64,000 nucleotides of DNA from an uncultured Acidimicrobiaceae bacterium. Its GTDB lineage: Bacteria > Actinomycetota > Acidimicrobiia > Acidimicrobiales > Palsa-688. Position 1 is the stretch's first letter. Each line of letters starts with the position of its first letter. The position numbers were made by a program, and so were the translations under genes. The DNA lies in assembly GCA_963729695.1 (NCBI GenBank), contig CAVSOT010000007.1:425332-489331 (forward strand), given 5' to 3'. The notes below the pieces were generated by a model, which worked only from the letters and a program-made list of their open reading frames with translations, made no database searches and had not been told where the DNA came from. Positions 2,001 through 38,183 of this stretch are shown piece by piece.

Positions 2001-3353
2001 GTGACCGCCCCCACTTCGCTGGAGGAAATTGCCGACGGCCTGGTGGCCGTGGTCAGGAGCAGTTGCCCGACGTGCGTGACCGTGGCTCCGGTTCTCGCCG
2101 AGCTGGCGTCGGAAGCCTCGTTGACGGTCATCAGCCAGGACGACCCGGGATTCCCTGACGGGGTCGAGTCGGTGGTCCTCGACCAGGATCTCCACCTGTC
2201 CTGGCTTCTCGGCATCGAGACGGTGCCAACCCTCCTCCGCGTAGCCGACGGGCGCGAGTCGGCCCGAGAGATCGGCTGGCACCGCAGCCGTTGGGAGACC
2301 CTCAGCGGCGTCCGGGAGTTGGGTGAGGGGCTTCCCGAACAGCGGCCGGGATGCGGCTCGCTGTCGGTCGAACCCGGTGTGGCCGAGGCGCTCGACGTCC
2401 GCCACCGACGCCAGATCATGCGCTCCCGTCGAGTCGAGTTCTCCGTGCTGGAGGACGAGTTCGAGGGCATGTGGGCGCGAGGGTGGACCGATGGGTTGCC
2501 GGTGGTGCCGCCAACCGAGGCGCGGGTCTTGGCCATGCTGGACGGCGCCCGGCGCGACCCCGACGAGGTGGTCGGGATCGTGGCGCCGAATCTGGTCCCG
2601 GTGACGGTGGAGAAGGTCGCGGTCAACGCAGTAATGGCCGGATGCCGTCCCGAGTACCTTCCCGTCGTCCTCGCTGCGGTCGAAGCCACCTGCACTGAAG
2701 GGTTCAACATCCACGGGGTGTTGGCCACCACGTTCTCCGTGGGGCCGGTGATCATCGTCAATGGTCCAGTGGCCCGCGCTATCGGTGTGAACAGCGGCGT
2801 CAACGTCCTGGGCCAGGGCAACCGGGCCAACTCGACCATCGGTCGGGCCCTTCAGCTGGTGGTTCGCAACGTCGGGGGCGGCCGTCCCGGCGGCGTCGAC
2901 CGAGCCACCCTCGGCAACCCCGGGAAGGTCGGTTTGTGTTTCTCAGAGGACGAGGAGGGTTCGCCTTGGGAACCGCTCTCGGTAGAGCGGGGAGTGCCCG
3001 ACGGAGTTTCCGCCGTCACCGTGTTCGCTGGAGGGGGGACGCACTCCATCTCCGACCAGACGGCCCGGACACCTGAAGATCTCAGCCGTACCCTGGCGTC
3101 CGGGTTGCGATCGGTGGACACCCTGCTGCTGGTCTCGCCTGATCACGGCCGGACCTTTCGGGACGGTGGCTGGTCGAAGGCCCGGTTGCGCGCCGCACTC
3201 GAACAGCCGAACCAGCGAACCGGGATGCTCGGAAGCCGAGAGTTGCTGATCGTGTATGCGGGTGGGGGCGCCGGGCTCTTCTCCGGCGCCATGGAGGGCT
3301 GGGGTGGTGGCCCCATGGGTAGCATGCACGTGACACGGGAGGTTCGACCATGA
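2001..3353 (+). CDS. fusion protein: N-terminal thioredoxin-fold domain (CPTC) + uncharacterised ~300-aa 'domain X'
   Basis: GTG start preceded by AAGGAAG. SSCPTCVTVAPVL...ETVPTLL is a thioredoxin-like CxxC fold. The C-terminal part (about 2433..3353) has two paralogs in the window (about 30410..31425 and 32109..33189) sharing GLPxxPPT, AGCxPEY, NGP, RANxTxGRA and FCFxED motifs. Confidence 0.85.
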   Translation: MTAPTSLEEIADGLVAVVRSSCPTCVTVAPVLAELASEASLTVISQDDPGFPDGVESVVLDQDLHLSWLLGIETVPTLLRVADGRESAREIGWHRSRWETLSGVRELGEGLPEQRPGCGSLSVEPGVAEALDVRHRRQIMRSRRVEFSVLEDEFEGMWARGWTDGLPVVPPTEARVLAMLDGARRDPDEVVGIVAPNLVPVTVEKVAVNAVMAGCRPEYLPVVLAAVEATCTEGFNIHGVLATTFSVGPVIIVNGPVARAIGVNSGVNVLGQGNRANSTIGRALQLVVRNVGGGRPGGVDRATLGNPGKVGLCFSEDEEGSPWEPLSVERGVPDGVSAVTVFAGGGTHSISDQTARTPEDLSRTLASGLRSVDTLLLVSPDHGRTFRDGGWSKARLRAALEQPNQRTGMLGSRELLIVYAGGGAGLFSGAMEGWGGGPMGSMHVTREVRP

Positions 3354-3395
3354 CGCCGATCGAGATGCCGTCGGGCGGGTATCGCGCTGAGTACC

Positions 3396-3923
3396 TTGCT
3401 GGACCCGACGGCTGAGCTCGCCCCCGCGAGCAGGGCGCTCGTCTCCCGCCCTGCTGGCCTCGACGGGTTGACCATCGGTCTGCTCGACATCTCCAAGCCC
3501 AGAGGTGACGTGTTCCTCGACCAGCTCGCGCAGCGACTGCACGGGCGGGGATGGAGCGTCCTGCGCTATGCAAAACCAACCTTCACCAAGCCGGCGCCCA
3601 TCGATCTTCGCCAGGAGATCGCCGTCCAGTGCGACGTGGTGATCGAGGCCCTCGCCGATTGAGGCAGCTGTACGTCGTGCAGTGTGCACGACATCGCCGA
3701 CCTGGACTCGCGAGGCGTGCCAGGCGTGTTTGTGGCGTCCCGCGAGTTCATCCCTGCCGCCGCGGCCCAGTCCGAAGGTCTCGGTTTTCCCGCCGCCGCG
3801 GTCTTTGTCGACCACCCGATACAGGATCGCACCGACGAGGAGGTCAGAGCCCTGGCTGACGGCGCCCTGCCTGCGCTTCTCGCCGCGCTCACCAACCCTG
3901 CGCCCACCCGCAGCGCGGACTGA
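3396..3923 (+). CDS. UGSC-motif selenoprotein (TGA 3660-3662 read as selenocysteine); function unknown
   Basis: ORF-track fragments 3396..3662 and 3684..3923 share one frame and are split only by TGA. Read-through gives ...VVIEALAD-U-GSCTSCSVHDIADL.... A paralog with the same TGA context lies at 31761, a hairpin lies 11 nt downstream, and the sel genes are in the window. The start is uncertain (TTG 3396, or ancestral ATG 3350 in another frame). Confidence 0.8.
3674..3692 (+). promoter_or_regulatory. SECIS-like RNA hairpin downstream of Sec codon
   Basis: Perfect inverted repeat GTCGTGCA-GTG-TGCACGAC starting 11 nt after TGA 3660-3662. The apical region contains GU. Confidence 0.55.
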
Positions 3924-29298: not shown

Positions 29299-31425
29299 GT
29301 GCACTCATCGTGGTTGACACCCGGCGGACCGTGTGAGACGGTGATGTTTGCTTTGAGCCGAGCAGGTAGTTCGTTGAGGACAACCGCTGTCGTCGGAGCC
29401 GGGGCCAGCGGCCTGTCGGCCGCCTGGCACGTGGCCCGTCGGGGTCATCACGTCATCCTGATCGACCATCAGGGGGCCGGGGGACAACTGTTGAACGTTG
29501 GCGTCATCGAGTCCGTTCCTGGTCTCGGGTCGTCGGTACGGGGGCCCGACCTGGTCGCTCGAATGGTGCAGCAGATGGATGAGCAGAAGATCGAGTGGCT
29601 GCACGAGCGGGCTGTCAACATCGGGCACCGGTCGAACCGGTTCCGGATCCTCACCGACGCGGGTTCCGAGGTCGTGGCCGACGCCGTCATCGTGGCAACC
29701 GGATCTTGGCACCGCCAACTCGGTGTTCCCGGCGAGGACGCCCTCGAGCACCGGGGCGTGTCCCACTGCGCCGTCTGTGACGGCCCGCTCTACCGGGATC
29801 GACCAGTAGCAGTGGTGGGTGGCGGCGACGCGGCCGCCGACGCCGCCGCCTACCTGGCCGGCATCTGCTCGCGGGTTCACCTCGTGCACCGAGCGGGTCG
29901 ACTCGAAGCGGTTGATGCCTTGTGTCGCCGGCTCTATGGGCTCCCCAACGTGGAGCATTGGCCCGACACGGAGGTGCGTCGCATCGGTGGGGACACAGCG
30001 GTCGAGGCGGTGGAGATCGAAGACGGCGCCGGGGGGAGGCGGAGCATCGAAGTAGCCGCTGTCTTCGTCGCCGTCGGGATGGATCCCGACGCCTCCTTGG
30101 TCGCCGGCCTCGCCCAGCTCGACCCCTCAGGATGCGTGGCGGTCGATGCCGGCCTGATGACAAACGTCCCGGGCCTGTTCGCCGTGGGAGCGGTCCGGGC
30201 GGGGACCTCCGGCCAGCTGGCGGGCTCCATCGGCGACGGTGTCGCCGCCGCCGCGGCCGCGGATGGGTGGCTTCGGTCCCAGCGCCCGCCGGCCGGTAGT
30301 CCAGGGTTGGCTCGTAGTCCAGGGTCGGCTCGTAGTCCAGGGTCGGCCCTTCGTCCGGGATGGGCCGGTGGTCCCGGATGGCCCGGCAACGCCACTCGCA
30401 CCCGTCGTCTCGACGATGGCTCGGACTACGTCGACTACGGCGACTTCTTCGACTCGATGGGCGAAGTCGGGGTCGGCGATGGATTGCCTCTTGTGCCGCC
30501 TACACCGGCGCGTTTCGACCGCTTCGCCACCGCGTTGGCGTGCGATCCCTACGAACTGCTGCCGGCTCTTCCGGACGGCCGCCGGCTGCGCTACGCCGAC
30601 CTCGTCATGTCCGCCATCCTGGCCGGCTGCCGCCCGGAGTACATGCCGGTGGTCGCGGCCGCAGCCGAGTCGCTGTTGACGGATCTCGCCGGCCGGCAAC
30701 CGCGACTGCCCGACTCCGTTGCGGTCGTCCTCGTCAACGGTCCCGTCCGGGAGACGATCGGCCTCAATTGCTCGGACGGCCTCTTCGGGCCGGGGTGGCG
30801 AGCCAATGCCACCATCGGGCGGGCCGTTCAGCTGTTCCTCCGTGGGCAGGTCGACGATCGCCGGCCGACCGGGTTCGGCGACGCCGGACAGATCGCGTTC
30901 TGCTTCGGAGAAGATGAACAAACGTCGCCCTGGACGCCACTGCACGTCCAGCGGGGATTAGATCCAGGCCAGAGCACGGCCACCGTTTTCGTGGCCAACG
31001 CCTACCGGCACATGCTGGACCGTCAGAACACTGATGCGGACGGGATCATCGAGTACCTGCGGCTGTTCCTTCGCGGCCGGGCCTCAGGAACCCGACTGTT
31101 CGGCGACGTCCCGCTAACCCTGATGGTCGTCATCGGTCGGGAGCTGCGGCGCCAGTTGGCCCCGCGCTATTCGAAGGCGGAGCTATCCGAACGGCTGTTC
31201 GACCTTCTGACCCTGGACGACGGGACGCCCTTTGGGCCAATCGACGTGCCCGATGCCGACCACGTTCTGATCGTCGGGGCGGGAGGCGTCGCCACCCCCG
31301 CACTATGGTGCTTTGTCGCGGCGGCGTCGCCGCCCGTTACCGTGCCGGTCCGCGATCCGGGACTCGCCTTCGGATCTGGGCCGCCGCCACGAGCTCGAGA
31401 GATGAGCCAAGGAGAAGCGAGATGA
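29299..31425 (+). CDS. fusion protein: thioredoxin-reductase-like flavoprotein (CAVC) + Pro/Gly-rich repeat linker + domain X
   Basis: VVGAGASGLSAAWHVARRG (FAD GxGxxG), GVSHCAVCDGPLY (TrxB-type redox disulfide), VVGGGDAAADAA (NADPH site) and GLFAVGAV. The C-terminal DGLPLVPPTPAR...LAGCRPEYMPVV...VNGPV...WRANATIGRA...FCFGEDEQ is domain X. Start may be ATG 29344. Confidence 0.85.
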   Translation: MHSSWLTPGGPCETVMFALSRAGSSLRTTAVVGAGASGLSAAWHVARRGHHVILIDHQGAGGQLLNVGVIESVPGLGSSVRGPDLVARMVQQMDEQKIEWLHERAVNIGHRSNRFRILTDAGSEVVADAVIVATGSWHRQLGVPGEDALEHRGVSHCAVCDGPLYRDRPVAVVGGGDAAADAAAYLAGICSRVHLVHRAGRLEAVDALCRRLYGLPNVEHWPDTEVRRIGGDTAVEAVEIEDGAGGRRSIEVAAVFVAVGMDPDASLVAGLAQLDPSGCVAVDAGLMTNVPGLFAVGAVRAGTSGQLAGSIGDGVAAAAAADGWLRSQRPPAGSPGLARSPGSARSPGSALRPGWAGGPGWPGNATRTRRLDDGSDYVDYGDFFDSMGEVGVGDGLPLVPPTPARFDRFATALACDPYELLPALPDGRRLRYADLVMSAILAGCRPEYMPVVAAAAESLLTDLAGRQPRLPDSVAVVLVNGPVRETIGLNCSDGLFGPGWRANATIGRAVQLFLRGQVDDRRPTGFGDAGQIAFCFGEDEQTSPWTPLHVQRGLDPGQSTATVFVANAYRHMLDRQNTDADGIIEYLRLFLRGRASGTRLFGDVPLTLMVVIGRELRRQLAPRYSKAELSERLFDLLTLDDGTPFGPIDVPDADHVLIVGAGGVATPALWCFVAAASPPVTVPVRDPGLAFGSGPPPRAREMSQGEAR
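30296..30385 (+). repeat. in-frame 18-nt (6-aa) tandem repeat, 5 diverging copies, forming the inter-domain linker
   Basis: GTAGTCCAGGGTTGGCTC / GTAGTCCAGGGTCGGCTC / GTAGTCCAGGGTCGGCCC / TTCGTCCGGGATGGGCCG / GTGGTCCCGGATGGCCCG, encoding GSPGLARSPGSARSPGSALRPGWAGGPGWPG. Confidence 0.7.
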
Positions 31426-32112
31426 ACCCTCTGGTGCGTCCGGTGAACGTTCGAAACGAGGTCGGAGTGGTGTGCGACCCGCTCGCTCCCTTGCCGGCCG
31501 GCGATGGCCGCGCCGAGCGGACCGTTGCCTCCCGGCCCTCGTCGCTCGACGGCAAGGTGCTCGCCGTGATCGACAACGGGATGGGCCAGCAAGCTCCAGG
31601 ACTGGGTTTCGGAGAGGTCTTGGTCCGGAAGCTGAAGGAGGTGGCCGACATTGCCGATGTCATCTACGTTCGCAAGGACGCGGTCAACGTCCCCCCTCGC
31701 CCAGAGGACTGGATGGAGATATGCCGTCGTGGCGACGTCGGTCTGGCCCTCTACGGCGCTTGAGGGAGTTGCAGCTCGCGCAGTTTCGCGCGACGCCATA
31801 GAGCTCGAGTGGGCTGGCATACCGGCAGTAGCGGTGGTGCACGAGGCGCTGGCCGGCTCGGCCGACGCCATGAGGTTGATGTCGGGGATCCCGCACTATC
31901 CGTTTCTCGAGGTCAACTTCCCGTTACCCCCGGTCGGCCCGTGGACCGTCGAGCAGGTTGAGGCTGTGTGCGACGAGCTGCTCCCCGGAGTGATCGAACA
32001 ATTGACCCACGACATCGCCGGGCCCGCGGCGCGTGACCAGCAGTCCGCCCCTGCGCTGGTCCCTGCCGGTGATGCCGTCGCAGAGGATCGGCCGAGGGCC
32101 CCGGCGCCGTGA
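31422..32112 (+). pseudogene. UGSC-motif (seleno)protein paralog; needs TGA 31761 recoding and a +1 frame correction near 31779 (pseudogene or assembly indel)
   Basis: ATG 31422 overlaps the upstream stop (ATGA). Frame 0 gives ...DVGLALYGA-TGA-GSCSS. The homologous continuation AVSRDAIELEWAGIPAVAVVHEAL...PFLEVNFP is in the +1 frame through TGA 32110-32112. The span is 3n+1 nt. Confidence 0.6.
31776..31793 (+). promoter_or_regulatory. SECIS-like hairpin downstream of second in-frame TGA
   Basis: TCGCGC-AGTTTC-GCGCGA, starting 12 nt after TGA 31761-31763. The loop contains GU. Confidence 0.4.
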
Positions 32113-33865: not shown

Positions 33866-34870
33866 TCAGTCGAGCGCGACCATGGGCGGTCCGGGCCCGA
33901 CCTCTCCAATCTCCCACCACCCGTTTCCGGCCAGGACCCCAGCGTCGTCGGGATGGACCGAGACGAGGAGTCCTCCCGAGGTTTGGGGGTCGATGGCCAG
34001 AGCCTCCAGGCTGGGTTCGGCCGCCGACGACAGATGGCCCTGCAAGTAGGCCCGGTTTCGGGCATCACCGCCCGTGCGCACCCCGGCCGTGGCGGCGCGC
34101 TTGGCCCCCGGATACAGAGGGAGGGCGGCCGAGTCGAACCGGATCGAGGCGCCTGACCTCTCGGCAATTTCCCAACCGTGACCAACCAGGCCGAACCCGG
34201 TCACGTCGGTGACTGCGTGCGCCGCCGGCCCGTAGTCTCGATCAGGAAGCTGCGCCAGTTGCTGCGCCGCCTTCCTGTTGAGCACTCGCATCTGCCCGAT
34301 CGTGGCCGTTTTCGAGCCTTCGTCGGTGCTGGCCAGCACGATGCCGGAGCCCAGCGGTTTGGAGAGGAGCAAGCGATCCCCCGCCAGGGCGCCGCCTTTG
34401 GTCCAGATCCGCTCGGGATCCACCAGCCCTTGGACAGCGAGGCCGAAGATCGGTTCGGCCGACCGGATCGTGTGGCCGCCGGCAATCGTCCCCCCGGCTT
34501 CGGCGACCACGGCGGCGGCCGCCTCCAGGATGGCTGCGATCGCATCTGGGGGGAATTCCTCGGGAAAGGCGGCAATGTTGAGAGCGGTGATCACCCGTCC
34601 TCCCATGGCGAATACGTCGCTGCAAGCGTTCGCGGCTGCGATGGCCCCGAAGTCGGCCGGATCGTCCACCAGGGGTGGGAAGAAGTCGGTGGTGGACACG
34701 ACCGCCAGTTCGGGCGATAGCCGGTACACAGCGGCGTCGTCGAAGGGGGCCAGACCGACGAGGAGATCAGCGTCCTCGGTCCCGGCGACCAGGTCCACCA
34801 GCCCGCTCAACGCGGCGCCGCCCCATTTGGCCGCGCACCCTCCACAGGATGTCCATTCGGTCAGTTTCAC
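33866..34870 (-). CDS. selD: selenide, water dikinase (selenophosphate synthetase), Cys-type
   Basis: LTEWTSCGGCAAKWGG N-terminal active-site loop followed by the AIR-synthase-like fold (DDAAVYRL..., DFFPPLVDDP, TDVTGFGLVGH). GTG 34870 overlaps the selA stop (GTGA). The longer ORF-track N-terminus overlaps selA and looks non-coding. Confidence 0.9.
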   Translation of the reverse strand: MKLTEWTSCGGCAAKWGGAALSGLVDLVAGTEDADLLVGLAPFDDAAVYRLSPELAVVSTTDFFPPLVDDPADFGAIAAANACSDVFAMGGRVITALNIAAFPEEFPPDAIAAILEAAAAVVAEAGGTIAGGHTIRSAEPIFGLAVQGLVDPERIWTKGGALAGDRLLLSKPLGSGIVLASTDEGSKTATIGQMRVLNRKAAQQLAQLPDRDYGPAAHAVTDVTGFGLVGHGWEIAERSGASIRFDSAALPLYPGAKRAATAGVRTGGDARNRAYLQGHLSSAAEPSLEALAIDPQTSGGLLVSVHPDDAGVLAGNGWWEIGEVGPGPPMVALD

Positions 34871-36180
34871 GGACCAGATCCTTCCGTTGGTGAGGGGGCC
34901 GCGTGGGCGGGCCCTGACAACGCCGCTCGTATCGCCTCGCCGAGGTCGCCGTCCTGGTGCTCGAAAACGGCGCGCATCTCGCAGAGGGTGCGGCCCTTTT
35001 CGACCCTGGGGATCACGGGAGGTTGCCAGCTGCGCAGGGGCGCGGAGATATCGCCTTCGATGGCCACGGCAACCGAGGGGATGAGCACGCCGGGGAGCGT
35101 TCCACCCCCCATGGGAGCCGCCGTATCGACCACCTCGCCGACAGCCAGGCGCTGTGCCCTTTGGCGGAGATCCGGCAACGGAGTCGTGGCCAGCTTCCAC
35201 AGCGGCACGGTGGACCCGGCGTCACGCCGCAGGTAGGCCAAAGCGACGTTCTGAAGTGCTTCCAGGACCAGGCCGCCCGGGCGGAGCACCCGGGCCAGCG
35301 GGTGCCGGCGGCACCTGTCCACCAGGGTGCTCGAACCGGCGATGATGCCGGCCTGCGGGCCGCCGAGCAGCTTGTCGCCGCTGAAGGTGATCAGGTCGGC
35401 TCCAGCCGACAGCGTCTGGCGGCACGCCGGTTCTCCCCCCAGCCAGTCTGGTGGACCGTCGGAGAGCCACGGGCAGGCCGCGTCCAGCAGCCCGGACCCG
35501 AGGTCGACCACCACCGGTGCTCCCAGCCCTTTGAGCTCCCGGACGGCGACCGACTCGGTGAAGCCACTGACGCGAAAGTTGGAGGTGTGGACCTTGAGCA
35601 CCAACGAGGTGAGAGGACCGATGGCCGCCTCGTAATCTCCTCGCTTGGTCCGGTTGGTGGTCCCAATCTCGACCAGCTGCGCACCCGAGGTCGCCAGGAT
35701 CTCCGGTATCCGGAATCCTCCGCCGATCTCGACGAGCTCTCCCCGGCTCACGATCACCTGGCCACCGCCACCGGCGAGCGCGGTGAGGGCGAGGAGGACG
35801 GCGGCCGCTCCGTTGTTGACCACCAGGGCCTCCTCGGCGCCGCACGCTTTGGCGATCAGGGTGGCGGCGTGCGCGGAGCGGTCGCCCCTGCTGCCGGCAT
35901 TGACGTCGAATTCGAGATTTGAGTACCCCGCCACGCGCTCGACGGGCAGCGGCGCTCTGCCGAGATTGGTGTGCAACAGCACCCCGGTTGCGTTGACGAG
36001 AGGCCGGAGGAGGCGCCGCCGGGTGTCGGCGGCTACGGCGGCCGCCCGTTGCAGGATGGTGTCCCCGTTGCCGTCCTCGCGGAGGACCGTCCTGGCCACG
36101 TCGACCAGAATCGGATGAGGCAGACCTGACGGCGCCAGCTGGCGGGCCAACGAGTCCACCGATGGTGGGCGGTGCGCCAC
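34867..36180 (-). CDS. selA: L-seryl-tRNA(Sec) selenium transferase
   Basis: VNATGVLLHTNLGRAPL, and the PLP-lysine motif FSGDKLLGGPQAG. Confidence 0.9.
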   Translation of the reverse strand: MAHRPPSVDSLARQLAPSGLPHPILVDVARTVLREDGNGDTILQRAAAVAADTRRRLLRPLVNATGVLLHTNLGRAPLPVERVAGYSNLEFDVNAGSRGDRSAHAATLIAKACGAEEALVVNNGAAAVLLALTALAGGGGQVIVSRGELVEIGGGFRIPEILATSGAQLVEIGTTNRTKRGDYEAAIGPLTSLVLKVHTSNFRVSGFTESVAVRELKGLGAPVVVDLGSGLLDAACPWLSDGPPDWLGGEPACRQTLSAGADLITFSGDKLLGGPQAGIIAGSSTLVDRCRRHPLARVLRPGGLVLEALQNVALAYLRRDAGSTVPLWKLATTPLPDLRQRAQRLAVGEVVDTAAPMGGGTLPGVLIPSVAVAIEGDISAPLRSWQPPVIPRVEKGRTLCEMRAVFEHQDGDLGEAIRAALSGPAHAAPSPTEGSGP

Positions 36181-36258
36181 GCCCGTAGGCTAGCCCTGAT
36201 GAGCATCGCCGACAGAGCCTGCATCCGCGTCGTAGTGGGGCGGGGCGGGCTGCTCCGG

Positions 36259-36351
36259 CGGAGGTGGACGGGAATCGAACCCGCCGCTGTGGGTGCGCCA
36301 CAGCCAACCGCTTTGAAGGCGGCGGAGTCCACCAGGTACTCGGACACCTCC
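36259..36351 (-). tRNA. selC: tRNA-Sec (anticodon UCA)
   Basis: The reverse complement reads GGAGGTGTCCGAGTACCTGGTGGACTCCGCCGCCTTCAAAGCGGTTGGCTGTGGCGCACCCACAGCGGCGGGTTCGATTCCCGTCCACCTCCG. It has a 7-bp acceptor (GGAGGTG/CACCTCC), anticodon loop CTTCAAA, a long variable arm (GCTGTGG-CGCAC-CCACAGC) and a 6-bp T-stem with loop TTCGATT, giving 13 stacked acceptor+T base pairs as in tRNA-Sec. It lies between selA and selB. Confidence 0.85.
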
Positions 36352-36452: not shown

Positions 36453-38183
36453 ATGGCGGTAATCGCGACAGCCGGTCACGTCGATCACGGGAAGTCGACA
36501 TTGGTATTGGCCTTGACCGGCGTCGATCCCGATCGTCTCCCTGAAGAGCAAACGAGAGGCATGACGATCGATCTGGGGTTCGCCCACACCACGCTGAAAT
36601 CGGGTCGACAGGTTTCTTTTATCGACGTTCCCGGACACGGGCGATTCGTGAAGAACATGTTGGCCGGTGTGACAGGAGTGGACGGCGTCCTTTTCGTCGT
36701 CGCCGCCACGGAAGGGTGGAAAGCCCAGTCGGAGGAGCATCTGGCCATATTGGAACTGACCGGCGCCCCGGCCGGGGTGGTGGCGTTCACCAAGGTTGCC
36801 GGAGTTCCACGAGCCCAGCTCGAGGCCGTGGTGGCGGACTGCCGCCGCTTTCTGTCTGGTTCTTTCCTCGCTGATGCGGAGATCGTTTTCGTCGATGTGC
36901 CGCACAACGTCGGACTGCCAGAGCTGCAGGATGCCCTCGACAGATTGGTCGGTAAGGTCGCTGCGCCAGTGGACTGCCGGCGGCCCAGACTGTGGATCGA
37001 CCGTTCCTTTTCCGTTCGGGGGACTGGGACCGTGGTGACGGGGACACTCAACGATGGGCCGCTCGCGGTAGGGGACATCGTCGCCGTGCAGCCGGGGCGT
37101 CGCCCCGTGCGGATCCGGGGCCTCCAGAGCAACGGTCGCCCGCTCTCGGACGCGTCGCCGGGCTGTCGGCTGGCGGTCAACCTGGCGGATACGGCGGTGA
37201 CCGAGGTGCGTCGCGGTCAGGCCGTGGTGCGACCCGACGAGTGGCATCTGACGCGGACGTTCGACGCCTCCCTCCAGGTGCTGCGGTCGGTCGCCCACGA
37301 GATTTCCCAGAAGGGCGCCTTCACGGTCCACATCGGCACGTCTGCGGTTCCGGTCCGGATCCGCGTGATCGGCGAGGAAACCCACCTGGGAGCTGGCGAG
37401 GAAGGATTCGTTCGGGTGTGGATGCAAAGGGGCTCCACCCTTCCGTTGGTACCCGGTGACCGGTACATCCTTCGGGAAGCCGGCCGAGCCGAAACGGTCG
37501 GAGGTGGCGAGGTCCTCGATGTCGATCCGTTGCTGGGCGCCAAACGGGCGATGCCTTCGAAATCGGCAGAGCGGGTGGTCAGCGAGCGCGGCTGGGTGGA
37601 CGTGGACGAGCTGCAACGGCTGACCGGGCAGACGCTGGCGCCCAACGCCGGCCGGTGGGTCGTGGACCCCGCCGTGCTGGCTGCCCAGCGGGAAGACCTG
37701 AAGGCCAGGTGTCGGGCGGCCGGTCGGAGCGGTTTGGACACGGCCACCCTGGATGACCTGCAGCGTGCCATTCTCGACTTGGGCCTCGACGGTATCCGCG
37801 TGGCGCATGGACGAGCGGTTGACGAGTCCTCCTCGGAGGAGCTCAGCACGGATGAAACCCGGGTGCTCCGCATTCTCGAGTCGAGTCCCTGGGACCCCCC
37901 GGATCTGCCGCTCGGAGACAGAGGGGCCTTGCGGCGGCTGCAACGCCTGGGACTCGTCGTGGAGTCCGAGAGCATCTGGTTTGCCACCTCAGCGGTGGAA
38001 AAGGCCATGGCGGTGATCGTCGGGCTCGTCCGGGATCACCAGGAGGGATTCACCGTTGCCCAATTTCGCAGTGCGCTCGGCACGAGTCGCAAATTTGCCC
38101 TGCCGCTCCTGCGTTATGCAGATACCGCAGGCCTCACCAAACGCGAGGGTGATTTCCGGAAGCTGAGGCATACCGAAAGTTGA
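36453..38183 (+). CDS. selB: selenocysteine-specific translation elongation factor
   Basis: G-domain AGHVDHGKSTL, DVPGH and a C-terminal winged-helix extension. 576 aa. Divergent from tRNA-Sec/selA. Confidence 0.9.
   Translation: MAVIATAGHVDHGKSTLVLALTGVDPDRLPEEQTRGMTIDLGFAHTTLKSGRQVSFIDVPGHGRFVKNMLAGVTGVDGVLFVVAATEGWKAQSEEHLAILELTGAPAGVVAFTKVAGVPRAQLEAVVADCRRFLSGSFLADAEIVFVDVPHNVGLPELQDALDRLVGKVAAPVDCRRPRLWIDRSFSVRGTGTVVTGTLNDGPLAVGDIVAVQPGRRPVRIRGLQSNGRPLSDASPGCRLAVNLADTAVTEVRRGQAVVRPDEWHLTRTFDASLQVLRSVAHEISQKGAFTVHIGTSAVPVRIRVIGEETHLGAGEEGFVRVWMQRGSTLPLVPGDRYILREAGRAETVGGGEVLDVDPLLGAKRAMPSKSAERVVSERGWVDVDELQRLTGQTLAPNAGRWVVDPAVLAAQREDLKARCRAAGRSGLDTATLDDLQRAILDLGLDGIRVAHGRAVDESSSEELSTDETRVLRILESSPWDPPDLPLGDRGALRRLQRLGLVVESESIWFATSAVEKAMAVIVGLVRDHQEGFTVAQFRSALGTSRKFALPLLRYADTAGLTKREGDFRKLRHTES

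Follow-up and report, generated by a model that had tools for sequence, protein, structure and literature searches.

A probable SECIS hairpin overlapping the coding sequence of a UGSC-family selenoprotein gene in an uncultured Acidimicrobiaceae bacterium

The stretch of DNA analysed here (the window) is 64,000 nucleotides long and comes from an uncultured Acidimicrobiaceae bacterium placed in Palsa-688 of the Acidimicrobiales (GenBank assembly GCA_963729695.1, contig CAVSOT010000007.1, positions 425,332 to 489,331 of the forward strand). It contains two genes of the UGSC family of selenoproteins, copy 1 and a broken copy 2, and a complete selenocysteine (Sec) machinery, with selA, selB, selC and selD all present; positions within the window are collected in Table 1. 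A stem-loop at 3674-3692, shortly downstream of the in-frame UGA of copy 1, is very probably the selenocysteine insertion sequence (SECIS) element of that gene, a reading that draws on comparison of related sequences and is the subject of this report. The open reading frames (ORFs) 3396-3662 and 3682-3923 give one 175-residue product when the TGA that closes the first of them is read as Sec (U). This product scores 151.1 bits against the NCBIfam model NF041046 "UGSC family (seleno)protein" (cut-off 125) and 145.5 bits against Pfam PF24696 (cut-off 25), and the TGA at 3660 falls on the U position of the UGSC motif, which makes copy 1 a full-scoring member of the family described by Zhang & Gladyshev (2008, PMC2398784). 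The genome contains five UGSC paralogues that are intact and have a single in-frame TGA apiece; the broken copy 2 of the window is additional to these. Relatives that carry taxon names put the organism in the Acidimicrobiia (Actinomycetota), and the closest locus belongs to a metagenome-assembled genome (MAG) labelled "uncultured Acidimicrobiaceae".

Table 1. Positions of the features discussed, numbered from the first nucleotide of the window.
Feature	Position	Strand	Remarks
UGSC-family selenoprotein gene, copy 1	3396..3923	+	TTG 3396 is the start of the body; stop TGA 3921-3923
UGA selenocysteine codon of copy 1, motif D-U-G-S-C	3660..3662	+	TGA in 108/108 orthologue loci collected
11-nt spacer, GGCAGCTGTAC (codons G-S-C plus AC)	3663..3673	+	synonymous sites vary freely among orthologues
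Predicted SECIS, 5′ arm (DNA GTCGTGCA, RNA GUCGUGCA)	3674..3681	+	
Predicted SECIS, apical loop GUG	3682..3684	+	G23 and U24, with the U of UGA as position 1; G+U come from the rare Ser codon AGT
Predicted SECIS, 3′ arm (DNA TGCACGAC, RNA UGCACGAC)	3685..3692	+	
UGSC-family gene, copy 2, broken	31422..32112	+	N-terminal half through the TGA in one frame; C-terminal half in the +1 frame
UGA Sec codon of copy 2 (A-U-G-S-C)	31761..31763	+	intact Sec-form relatives exist
Copy 2 hairpin as sequenced, UCGCGC-AGUUUC-GCGCGA	31776..31793	+	-9.6 kcal/mol
One extra base in copy 2	31787	+	loop/3′-arm junction; absent from all seven aligned relatives; shifts the frame
selD, selenophosphate synthetase	33944..34867	-	TIGR00476, 321.7 bits; AIRS domains
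selA, selenocysteine synthase	34930..36066	-	TIGR00474, 392.8 bits; PF03841
tRNA-Sec (selC), anticodon TCA	36257..36351	-	Rfam RF01852, 64.2 bits; ARAGORN
selB, Sec-specific elongation factor	36453..38183	+	TIGR00475, 257.7 bits (283.1 with the same-frame C-terminal piece)

UGSC-containing proteins were among the most abundant selenoprotein families in the Global Ocean Sampling (GOS) selenoproteome, with 255 Sec forms and 21 cysteine (Cys) forms (PMC2398784), and a 2026 review enters the family under NF041046 (PMC13188914). The literature on the family describes the proteins and states that the selenoproteins detected have SECIS elements (PMC2398784); a limited literature search found no specific description of the UGSC-family SECIS or of its overlap with the TSCSVHD peptide.

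The initial annotation of this DNA had pointed to a perfect 8-bp inverted repeat beginning 11 nt after the TGA of copy 1, with GU in its apical region, and both the coordinates and the sequence given there are exact. The repeat, GTCGTGCA-GTG-TGCACGAC, forms as RNA a perfect 8-bp stem with a 3-nt loop (-10.9 kcal/mol for the 19 nt), and the region 3660-3700 folds at -13.4 kcal/mol (ViennaRNA). The hairpin overlaps codons +4 to +10 counted from the recoded position (T-S-C-S-V-H-D), so that the same 21 nt are under a protein constraint and an RNA constraint at once. The bacterial SECIS (bSECIS) model of bSECISearch (Zhang & Gladyshev), in the form in which PMC13188914 summarises it, has a loop of 3-9 nt on a stem of 4-16 bp, at least one G at loop positions 1-2, usually followed by G or U, a distance of 16-37 nt from the UGA to the apical loop, and a minimum free energy (MFE) no higher than -7.5 kcal/mol. 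Copy 1 lies within all four of these limits (a 3-nt loop on an 8-bp stem; a loop that starts G-U; 19 nt, made up of the 11-nt spacer and the 8-nt arm; -10.9 kcal/mol), and, lying within the ORF directly downstream of its in-frame UGA, it shows no structural difference from the model.

A likeness to the SECIS element of Escherichia coli fdhF had also been proposed, and it held in outline and not in detail. According to a passage of PMC8659212 that cites Liu et al. 1998, the essential upper stem-loop of fdhF lies 11 nt from the UGA at positions 15-31, with G23 and U24 in its loop and a bulged U17 in its stem. The copy 1 element has the same 11-nt spacing, its stem also begins at position 15 and its loop positions 23-25 are G-U-G, but the stem is a perfect 8 bp without the bulged U17, the loop has 3 nt, and no lower stem that includes the UGA is evident. 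The host differs as well: it belongs to the Acidimicrobiia, an actinobacterial lineage, and has a SelB of its own.

Taken alone, the hairpin is not beyond chance. Perfect 8-bp hairpins with loops of 3-9 nt number 25 in the window against about 16 expected under a first-order Markov null, and although both the copy 1 and the copy 2 hairpins fold when given to ViennaRNA, their energies are no better than those of dinucleotide shuffles (MFE z-scores of +0.94 to -0.20). The G+C content of the genome is 66.5%, and in so GC-rich a sequence the folding-energy test is uninformative. These figures are what might be expected if the palindrome were a by-product of coding, with a conserved T-S-C-S-V-H-D peptide written in preferred GC-rich codons and no function for the RNA, and five of the seven codons concerned (TCG, TGC, GTG, CAC and GAC) are frequent in the genome. 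On the other hand, given the peptide and the codon usage, precisely this string of codons would be expected with a probability of only about 0.1% (the product of the codon frequencies), and of random synonymous re-codings at genome usage, 1% produced a model-compliant hairpin as good as the real one (P = 0.01). The same synonymous-codon null gave such hairpins in 4-11% of trials (P 0.04-0.11) for the four other intact paralogues of the genome. The chance of a hairpin of this kind in a given 6-nt start interval is about 0.2%, by simple arithmetic from the window hairpin count. The signal that stands above chance is that of position, of the synonymous-codon null and, above all, of conservation and covariation in relatives.

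Orthologues of copy 1 were collected from 108 loci (107 distinct sequences), all of which encode GSCTSCSVHD after the recoded position and all of which have TGA at that position. Across the 107 sequences, codons +4 to +10 (ACG TCG TGC AGT GTG CAC GAC) are near-invariant, with a mean top-codon frequency of 0.976, compared with 0.659 for 54 other conserved degenerate codons of the same alignment; ACG, AGT, GTG and GAC of the hairpin are each found in 107/107. The loop-forming Ser+7 is therefore always AGT, which accounts for 5.3% of Ser codons genome-wide, whereas Ser+2 of the same genes, which lies outside the hairpin, uses five codons (AGC 44, AGT 42, TCG 19, TCT 1 and TCC 1). Asp+13, likewise outside, is GAT in 72 sequences and GAC in 29, and the spacer codons for Gly, Ser and Cys have top-codon frequencies of 0.83, 0.41 and 0.80, respectively.

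The hairpin pairs third codon positions with third codon positions, and these positions covary. The pair formed by Ser+5 and His+9 is TCG/CAC in 95 sequences, TCG/CAT (a G·U pair) in 7 and TCA/CAT in 5, and the mismatching combination TCA/CAC does not occur; a hypergeometric calculation by hand gives about 7e-6, a significance that is overstated by the kinship of the sequences. Paralogue subfamilies hold to this register through compensatory changes, as in UGG..GUC and UGG..CUC (C:G to G:C), GCGGGCA-GUU-UGCUCGC and CCCGCA-GUU-UGCGGG. An alignment of 29 diverse Sec forms has 87.9% of its cells paired, compared with 14-53% after a displacement of the 3′ partner by 1-3 columns; four of its eight pairs change on both sides, and 0 of 500 shuffles attain the observed covariation score. 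RNAalifold, as an independent prediction, returns the core stem (the inner six pairs). The initial annotation had staked its proposal beforehand on the behaviour of orthologues, and in them the hairpin is both present and covarying.

Against a coding by-product, then, stand the fixation of a codon of 5.3% usage at Ser+7, the covariation of third positions, the retention of pairing in subfamilies with other peptides, and the Cys forms that have a similar peptide, TAYSVHD, and encode its serine by AGC or TCG without pairing. We consider that explanation very improbable and largely refuted by the synonymous-site data. A palindrome acting at the level of DNA, as the operator of a dimeric regulator or a recombination site, is a different matter, in that the copy 1 repeat is perfectly Watson-Crick paired and is by itself silent on which strand or which molecule is selected. 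The G·U wobbles among the relatives, however, occur in the sense orientation only, and these variants (TCG/CAT in 7 sequences, TGT/GTG in 1, and those of loci L040 and L035) would appear as A·C mismatches if the opposite strand or the symmetry of the duplex were what counted; the element moreover lies in the middle of an ORF at a position tied to the UGA. The likelihood of a DNA-level function is accordingly negligible in our estimation.

Cys forms of the family, in which no UGA has to be decoded as Sec, serve as controls. Six of seven lack a compliant hairpin at the SECIS position, the exception being L047 (below); L036, L061, L065, L066, L067, L068 and L070 have none there, or only a 4-bp one elsewhere, and in those of them with Ser at +7 the codon is AGC, TCG or TCC and not AGT. 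The locus search that was seeded with 28 close orthologues returned Sec forms only, so the Cys controls do not include one with an identical peptide. The supposition that the constraint is structural rather than purely one of coding is thus upheld by the frozen synonymous sites, the covarying pairs, the wobbles confined to the sense strand and the lack of the hairpin in most Cys forms.

Several observations, in addition to the hairpin count and the shuffle z-scores (above), weigh against a SECIS at this site. The orthologues are related, so their counts are not independent events, and the five TCA/CAT sequences could come from few changes. One Cys form, L047, has the hairpin GUCGGC-GGUG-GCCGAC (-12.9 kcal/mol) at the SECIS position, which may have been left over from a recent Sec-to-Cys change or may be due to chance in GC-rich DNA; this locus (G184:C1:32125-32559, minus strand), with TGC at the Sec position, is also the top-scoring family member found, at 168.7 bits. 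Conversely, the Sec-form groups L002, L037 and L044/45/73/74 have only weak simple hairpins at the usual spot. The scan of Sec and Cys forms allowed no bulges, and the SECIS elements of these groups may be bulged, differently placed or differently built. L044, L045, L073 and L074 make up a subfamily with the sequence YGH-U-GSCTTGTVRD, and in these four, in L037 and in C4:798519 of the genome under study the usual position has a weak perfect-stem hairpin or no hairpin. The bulged U that E. coli SelB needs, according to the fdhF passage of PMC8659212, is absent from the copy 1 stem, and no bulge is present in the stem of any of the 107 orthologues. Lastly, a search of copy 1 with the Rfam SECIS families gave no coding-strand match at gathering or at permissive thresholds; its sole hit was RF01988 (SECIS_2) on the minus strand, with 17.7 bits against a gathering score of 70 (E=0.55), and copy 2 matched none of these families. 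The copy 1 element would belong to the same functional class as the Rfam bacterial SECIS families (e.g. RF01988) without a match to their covariance models.

Conservation and covariation demonstrate an RNA structure that is under selection but do not show what binds it, and a role apart from SelB, such as causing the ribosome to pause at the UGA, protecting the mRNA or limiting the access of RF2, would be in keeping with the lack of the bulged U known from E. coli. Such a role is nonetheless very improbable. The structure is specific to TGA forms and is missing from most Cys forms, and its loop has an invariant G-U at positions 23-24, which is recognised by SelB in characterised systems (PMC8659212). 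A SelB with an RNA-binding winged helix is encoded nearby; this C-terminal SelB-wing_3 domain, the SECIS-binding domain, matches PF09107 with 52.9 bits at residues 528-571. The same loop signature, moreover, is found again after the UGA of another, unrelated selenoprotein gene, which lies in the genome outside the window (G000:C3:1228881). That gene encodes a ResA-like WAxxUGC protein (NF041054, 300.8 bits) whose motif W-G-S-Y-U-G-C contains the in-frame TGA, and 15 nt after this UGA begins the hairpin CUGCC-CGUGU-GGCAG; a GU-loop signal shared with the UGSC genes and read by one SelB would explain the resemblance. A genome-wide screen for in-frame TGAs flanked on either side by coding signal gave mostly adjacent genes in the same frame, and the ResA-like gene was the only further convincing selenoprotein.

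The copy 1 hairpin is a sense-strand RNA structure under strong selection, tied to the UGA-bearing forms of the family, in a genome with a complete Sec pathway. We regard it with considerable confidence as the SECIS element of this UGSC-family selenoprotein mRNA, and we infer that SelB would bind it and that read-through of the UGA would depend on the stem. From what is established about bacterial Sec decoding, its action can be pictured as follows: with UGA 3660 in the ribosomal A site, the hairpin 11 nt downstream would lie just outside the mRNA channel, at the channel entrance, where SelB, the product of a gene 33 kb away in the window, could bind the apical G-U of the hairpin with its C-terminal winged-helix domain; SelB·GTP·Sec-tRNA(Sec) would thereby be delivered to the UGA, and Sec would be inserted in place of termination.

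The second UGSC gene of the window has, as the initial annotation described, a TGA at 31761 that is followed after a 12-nt spacer by TCGCGC-AGTTTC-GCGCGA. The two halves of copy 2 are in different frames, one matching positions 22-75 of the family profile and the other positions 76-147, and the N-terminal half begins with ATG 31422, which overlaps the upstream stop codon; the gene upstream (29299-31425) encodes a Pyr_redox_2 flavoprotein of 708 amino acids. A search of the nine other genomes of the genus at the DNA level found no orthologue of copy 2, and a search at the protein level, extended to the whole order, brought up four distant relatives, all Sec forms. A metagenome search with a pattern of 52 specified bases gave no match, and one with a shorter pattern gave two contigs. 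Copy 2 was aligned with four Sec-form relatives (L158-L161), one Cys form (L036) and the two metagenome contigs (L162 and L163), which repeat the copy 2 hairpin letter for letter minus the extra base that lies in copy 2 within TTCG 31785-31788. The intact relatives read ...AGC UCG CGC AGU UUG CGC GAC... and form UCGCGCA-GUU-UGCGCGA, whose 7-bp stem carries a GUU loop and pairs in the register of copy 1, while copy 2 as sequenced has a 6-bp stem and a 6-nt loop offset by one. The claim that the paralogue keeps the geometry with a different sequence therefore holds strictly for the intact relatives only and not for the sequenced copy with its frame-breaking base, whose hairpin appears to be a damaged version of a paralogous SECIS: the same kind of signal, as we read it, in a gene whose frame has been broken and whose loop has been distorted by base 31787.

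This extra base is probably an error of assembly or base calling, since copy 2 is otherwise intact on both sides and the base is found in no relative. It is also possible, though on the whole doubtful, that the base is real and that copy 2 is a recently inactivated pseudogene: the base is there in the assembly, its site is not a long homopolymer, and the other UGSC gene of the window also has a one-base frame mismatch near its 5′ end (below). Set against recent inactivation are the intact rest of the gene, which is coding-like on both sides, the lack of the base in all seven aligned relatives, and the origin of the closest named relatives, which are long-read MAGs, a kind of assembly in which single-base indels may occur. 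A third explanation, that the base is real and that ribosomes get past it by a programmed +1 frameshift in the SECIS loop, would call for two recoding events in each mRNA. The shift would occur within a structured region, 24 nt beyond a UGA that is slow to decode, but there is no slippery or hungry-codon motif at the site (AGU-UUC-GCG), the insertion enlarges the loop and shortens the stem, and the arrangement is not conserved, because it is absent from all seven relatives. With neither a motif nor conservation, programmed frameshifting in copy 2 is very unlikely indeed. The broken gene is a reminder that single-base indels in MAGs can look like exotic recoding.

The 5′ end of copy 1 has an irregularity of its own. 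A GGGAGG Shine-Dalgarno sequence lies 6 nt upstream of an ATG at 3350, and this ATG shares bases with the stop codon of the preceding gene (ATGA), but its frame (3350-3413) runs for 21 codons and is one base out of register with the UGSC body from TTG 3396. The closest named relative, L077, has an equivalent N-terminal tail, MTPGQKFEPAAKVA-LLDP, in frame, and same-genus relatives of copy 1 have a GTG start three codons before LLDP. The mismatch upstream of TTG 3396 may reflect a second single-base indel (near CC 3394-3395) or the use of a different start codon.

A few other features of the family were seen in passing. The codon before the UGA (window 3657-3665 covers both neighbours) is GAT in 91% of the 107 orthologues, although GAC makes up 75% of Asp codons in the genome, and the codon after it is GGC in 83%, so that GAU-UGA-GGC has the look of a preferred context for the Sec codon. 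Several UGSC matches lie within open frames of about 560-680 amino acids, in which the UGSC domain is fused to a larger protein; these come from the genome under study (e.g. G000:C4:798292-798714) and from loci of G008, G015, G006 and G070. Orthologues with a core identical to the predicted SECIS of copy 1 are present in MAGs labelled Acidobacteria, Myxococcota, Caldilineaceae or Bifidobacterium (L084, L128, L129, L088, L093 and L118), and this could be due to binning or labelling errors or to horizontal transfer of the gene.

The copy 1 hairpin has the form of a textbook bacterial SECIS, the selenoprotein family to which its gene belongs is known, it would act by a known mechanism, and our understanding of Sec decoding is unchanged by it. 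It is useful in more practical ways. UGSC genes in Acidimicrobiia are split at the TGA by standard gene callers and should be annotated as single selenoprotein genes. The UGSC SECIS signature, UGA-N11-GUCGUGCA-GUG-UGCACGAC, together with its natural compensatory variants, could seed a covariance model, of which Rfam has none that matches, and the same natural variants are ready-made controls for reporter assays. The only mildly unusual aspect of the element is the extent to which its 21-nt core is frozen across many genomes while it encodes a conserved peptide; the bSECIS model asks only for a shape and one G, and by that standard 21 nt that are near-invariant in more than 100 genomes are unusually constrained. 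Because the same 21 nt recur in all these genomes even though compensatory variants are tolerated in paralogues, we suggest tentatively, as an unlikely possibility, that the hairpin and the active-site-proximal T-S-C-S-V-H-D are mutually locked in a dual code, or that the SelB of this lineage reads the sequence of the stem as well as the loop. If a dual-code lock of this kind were true, it could help to explain the rarity of Sec-to-Cys conversion in the UGSC family (255 versus 21 in the GOS data; PMC2398784).

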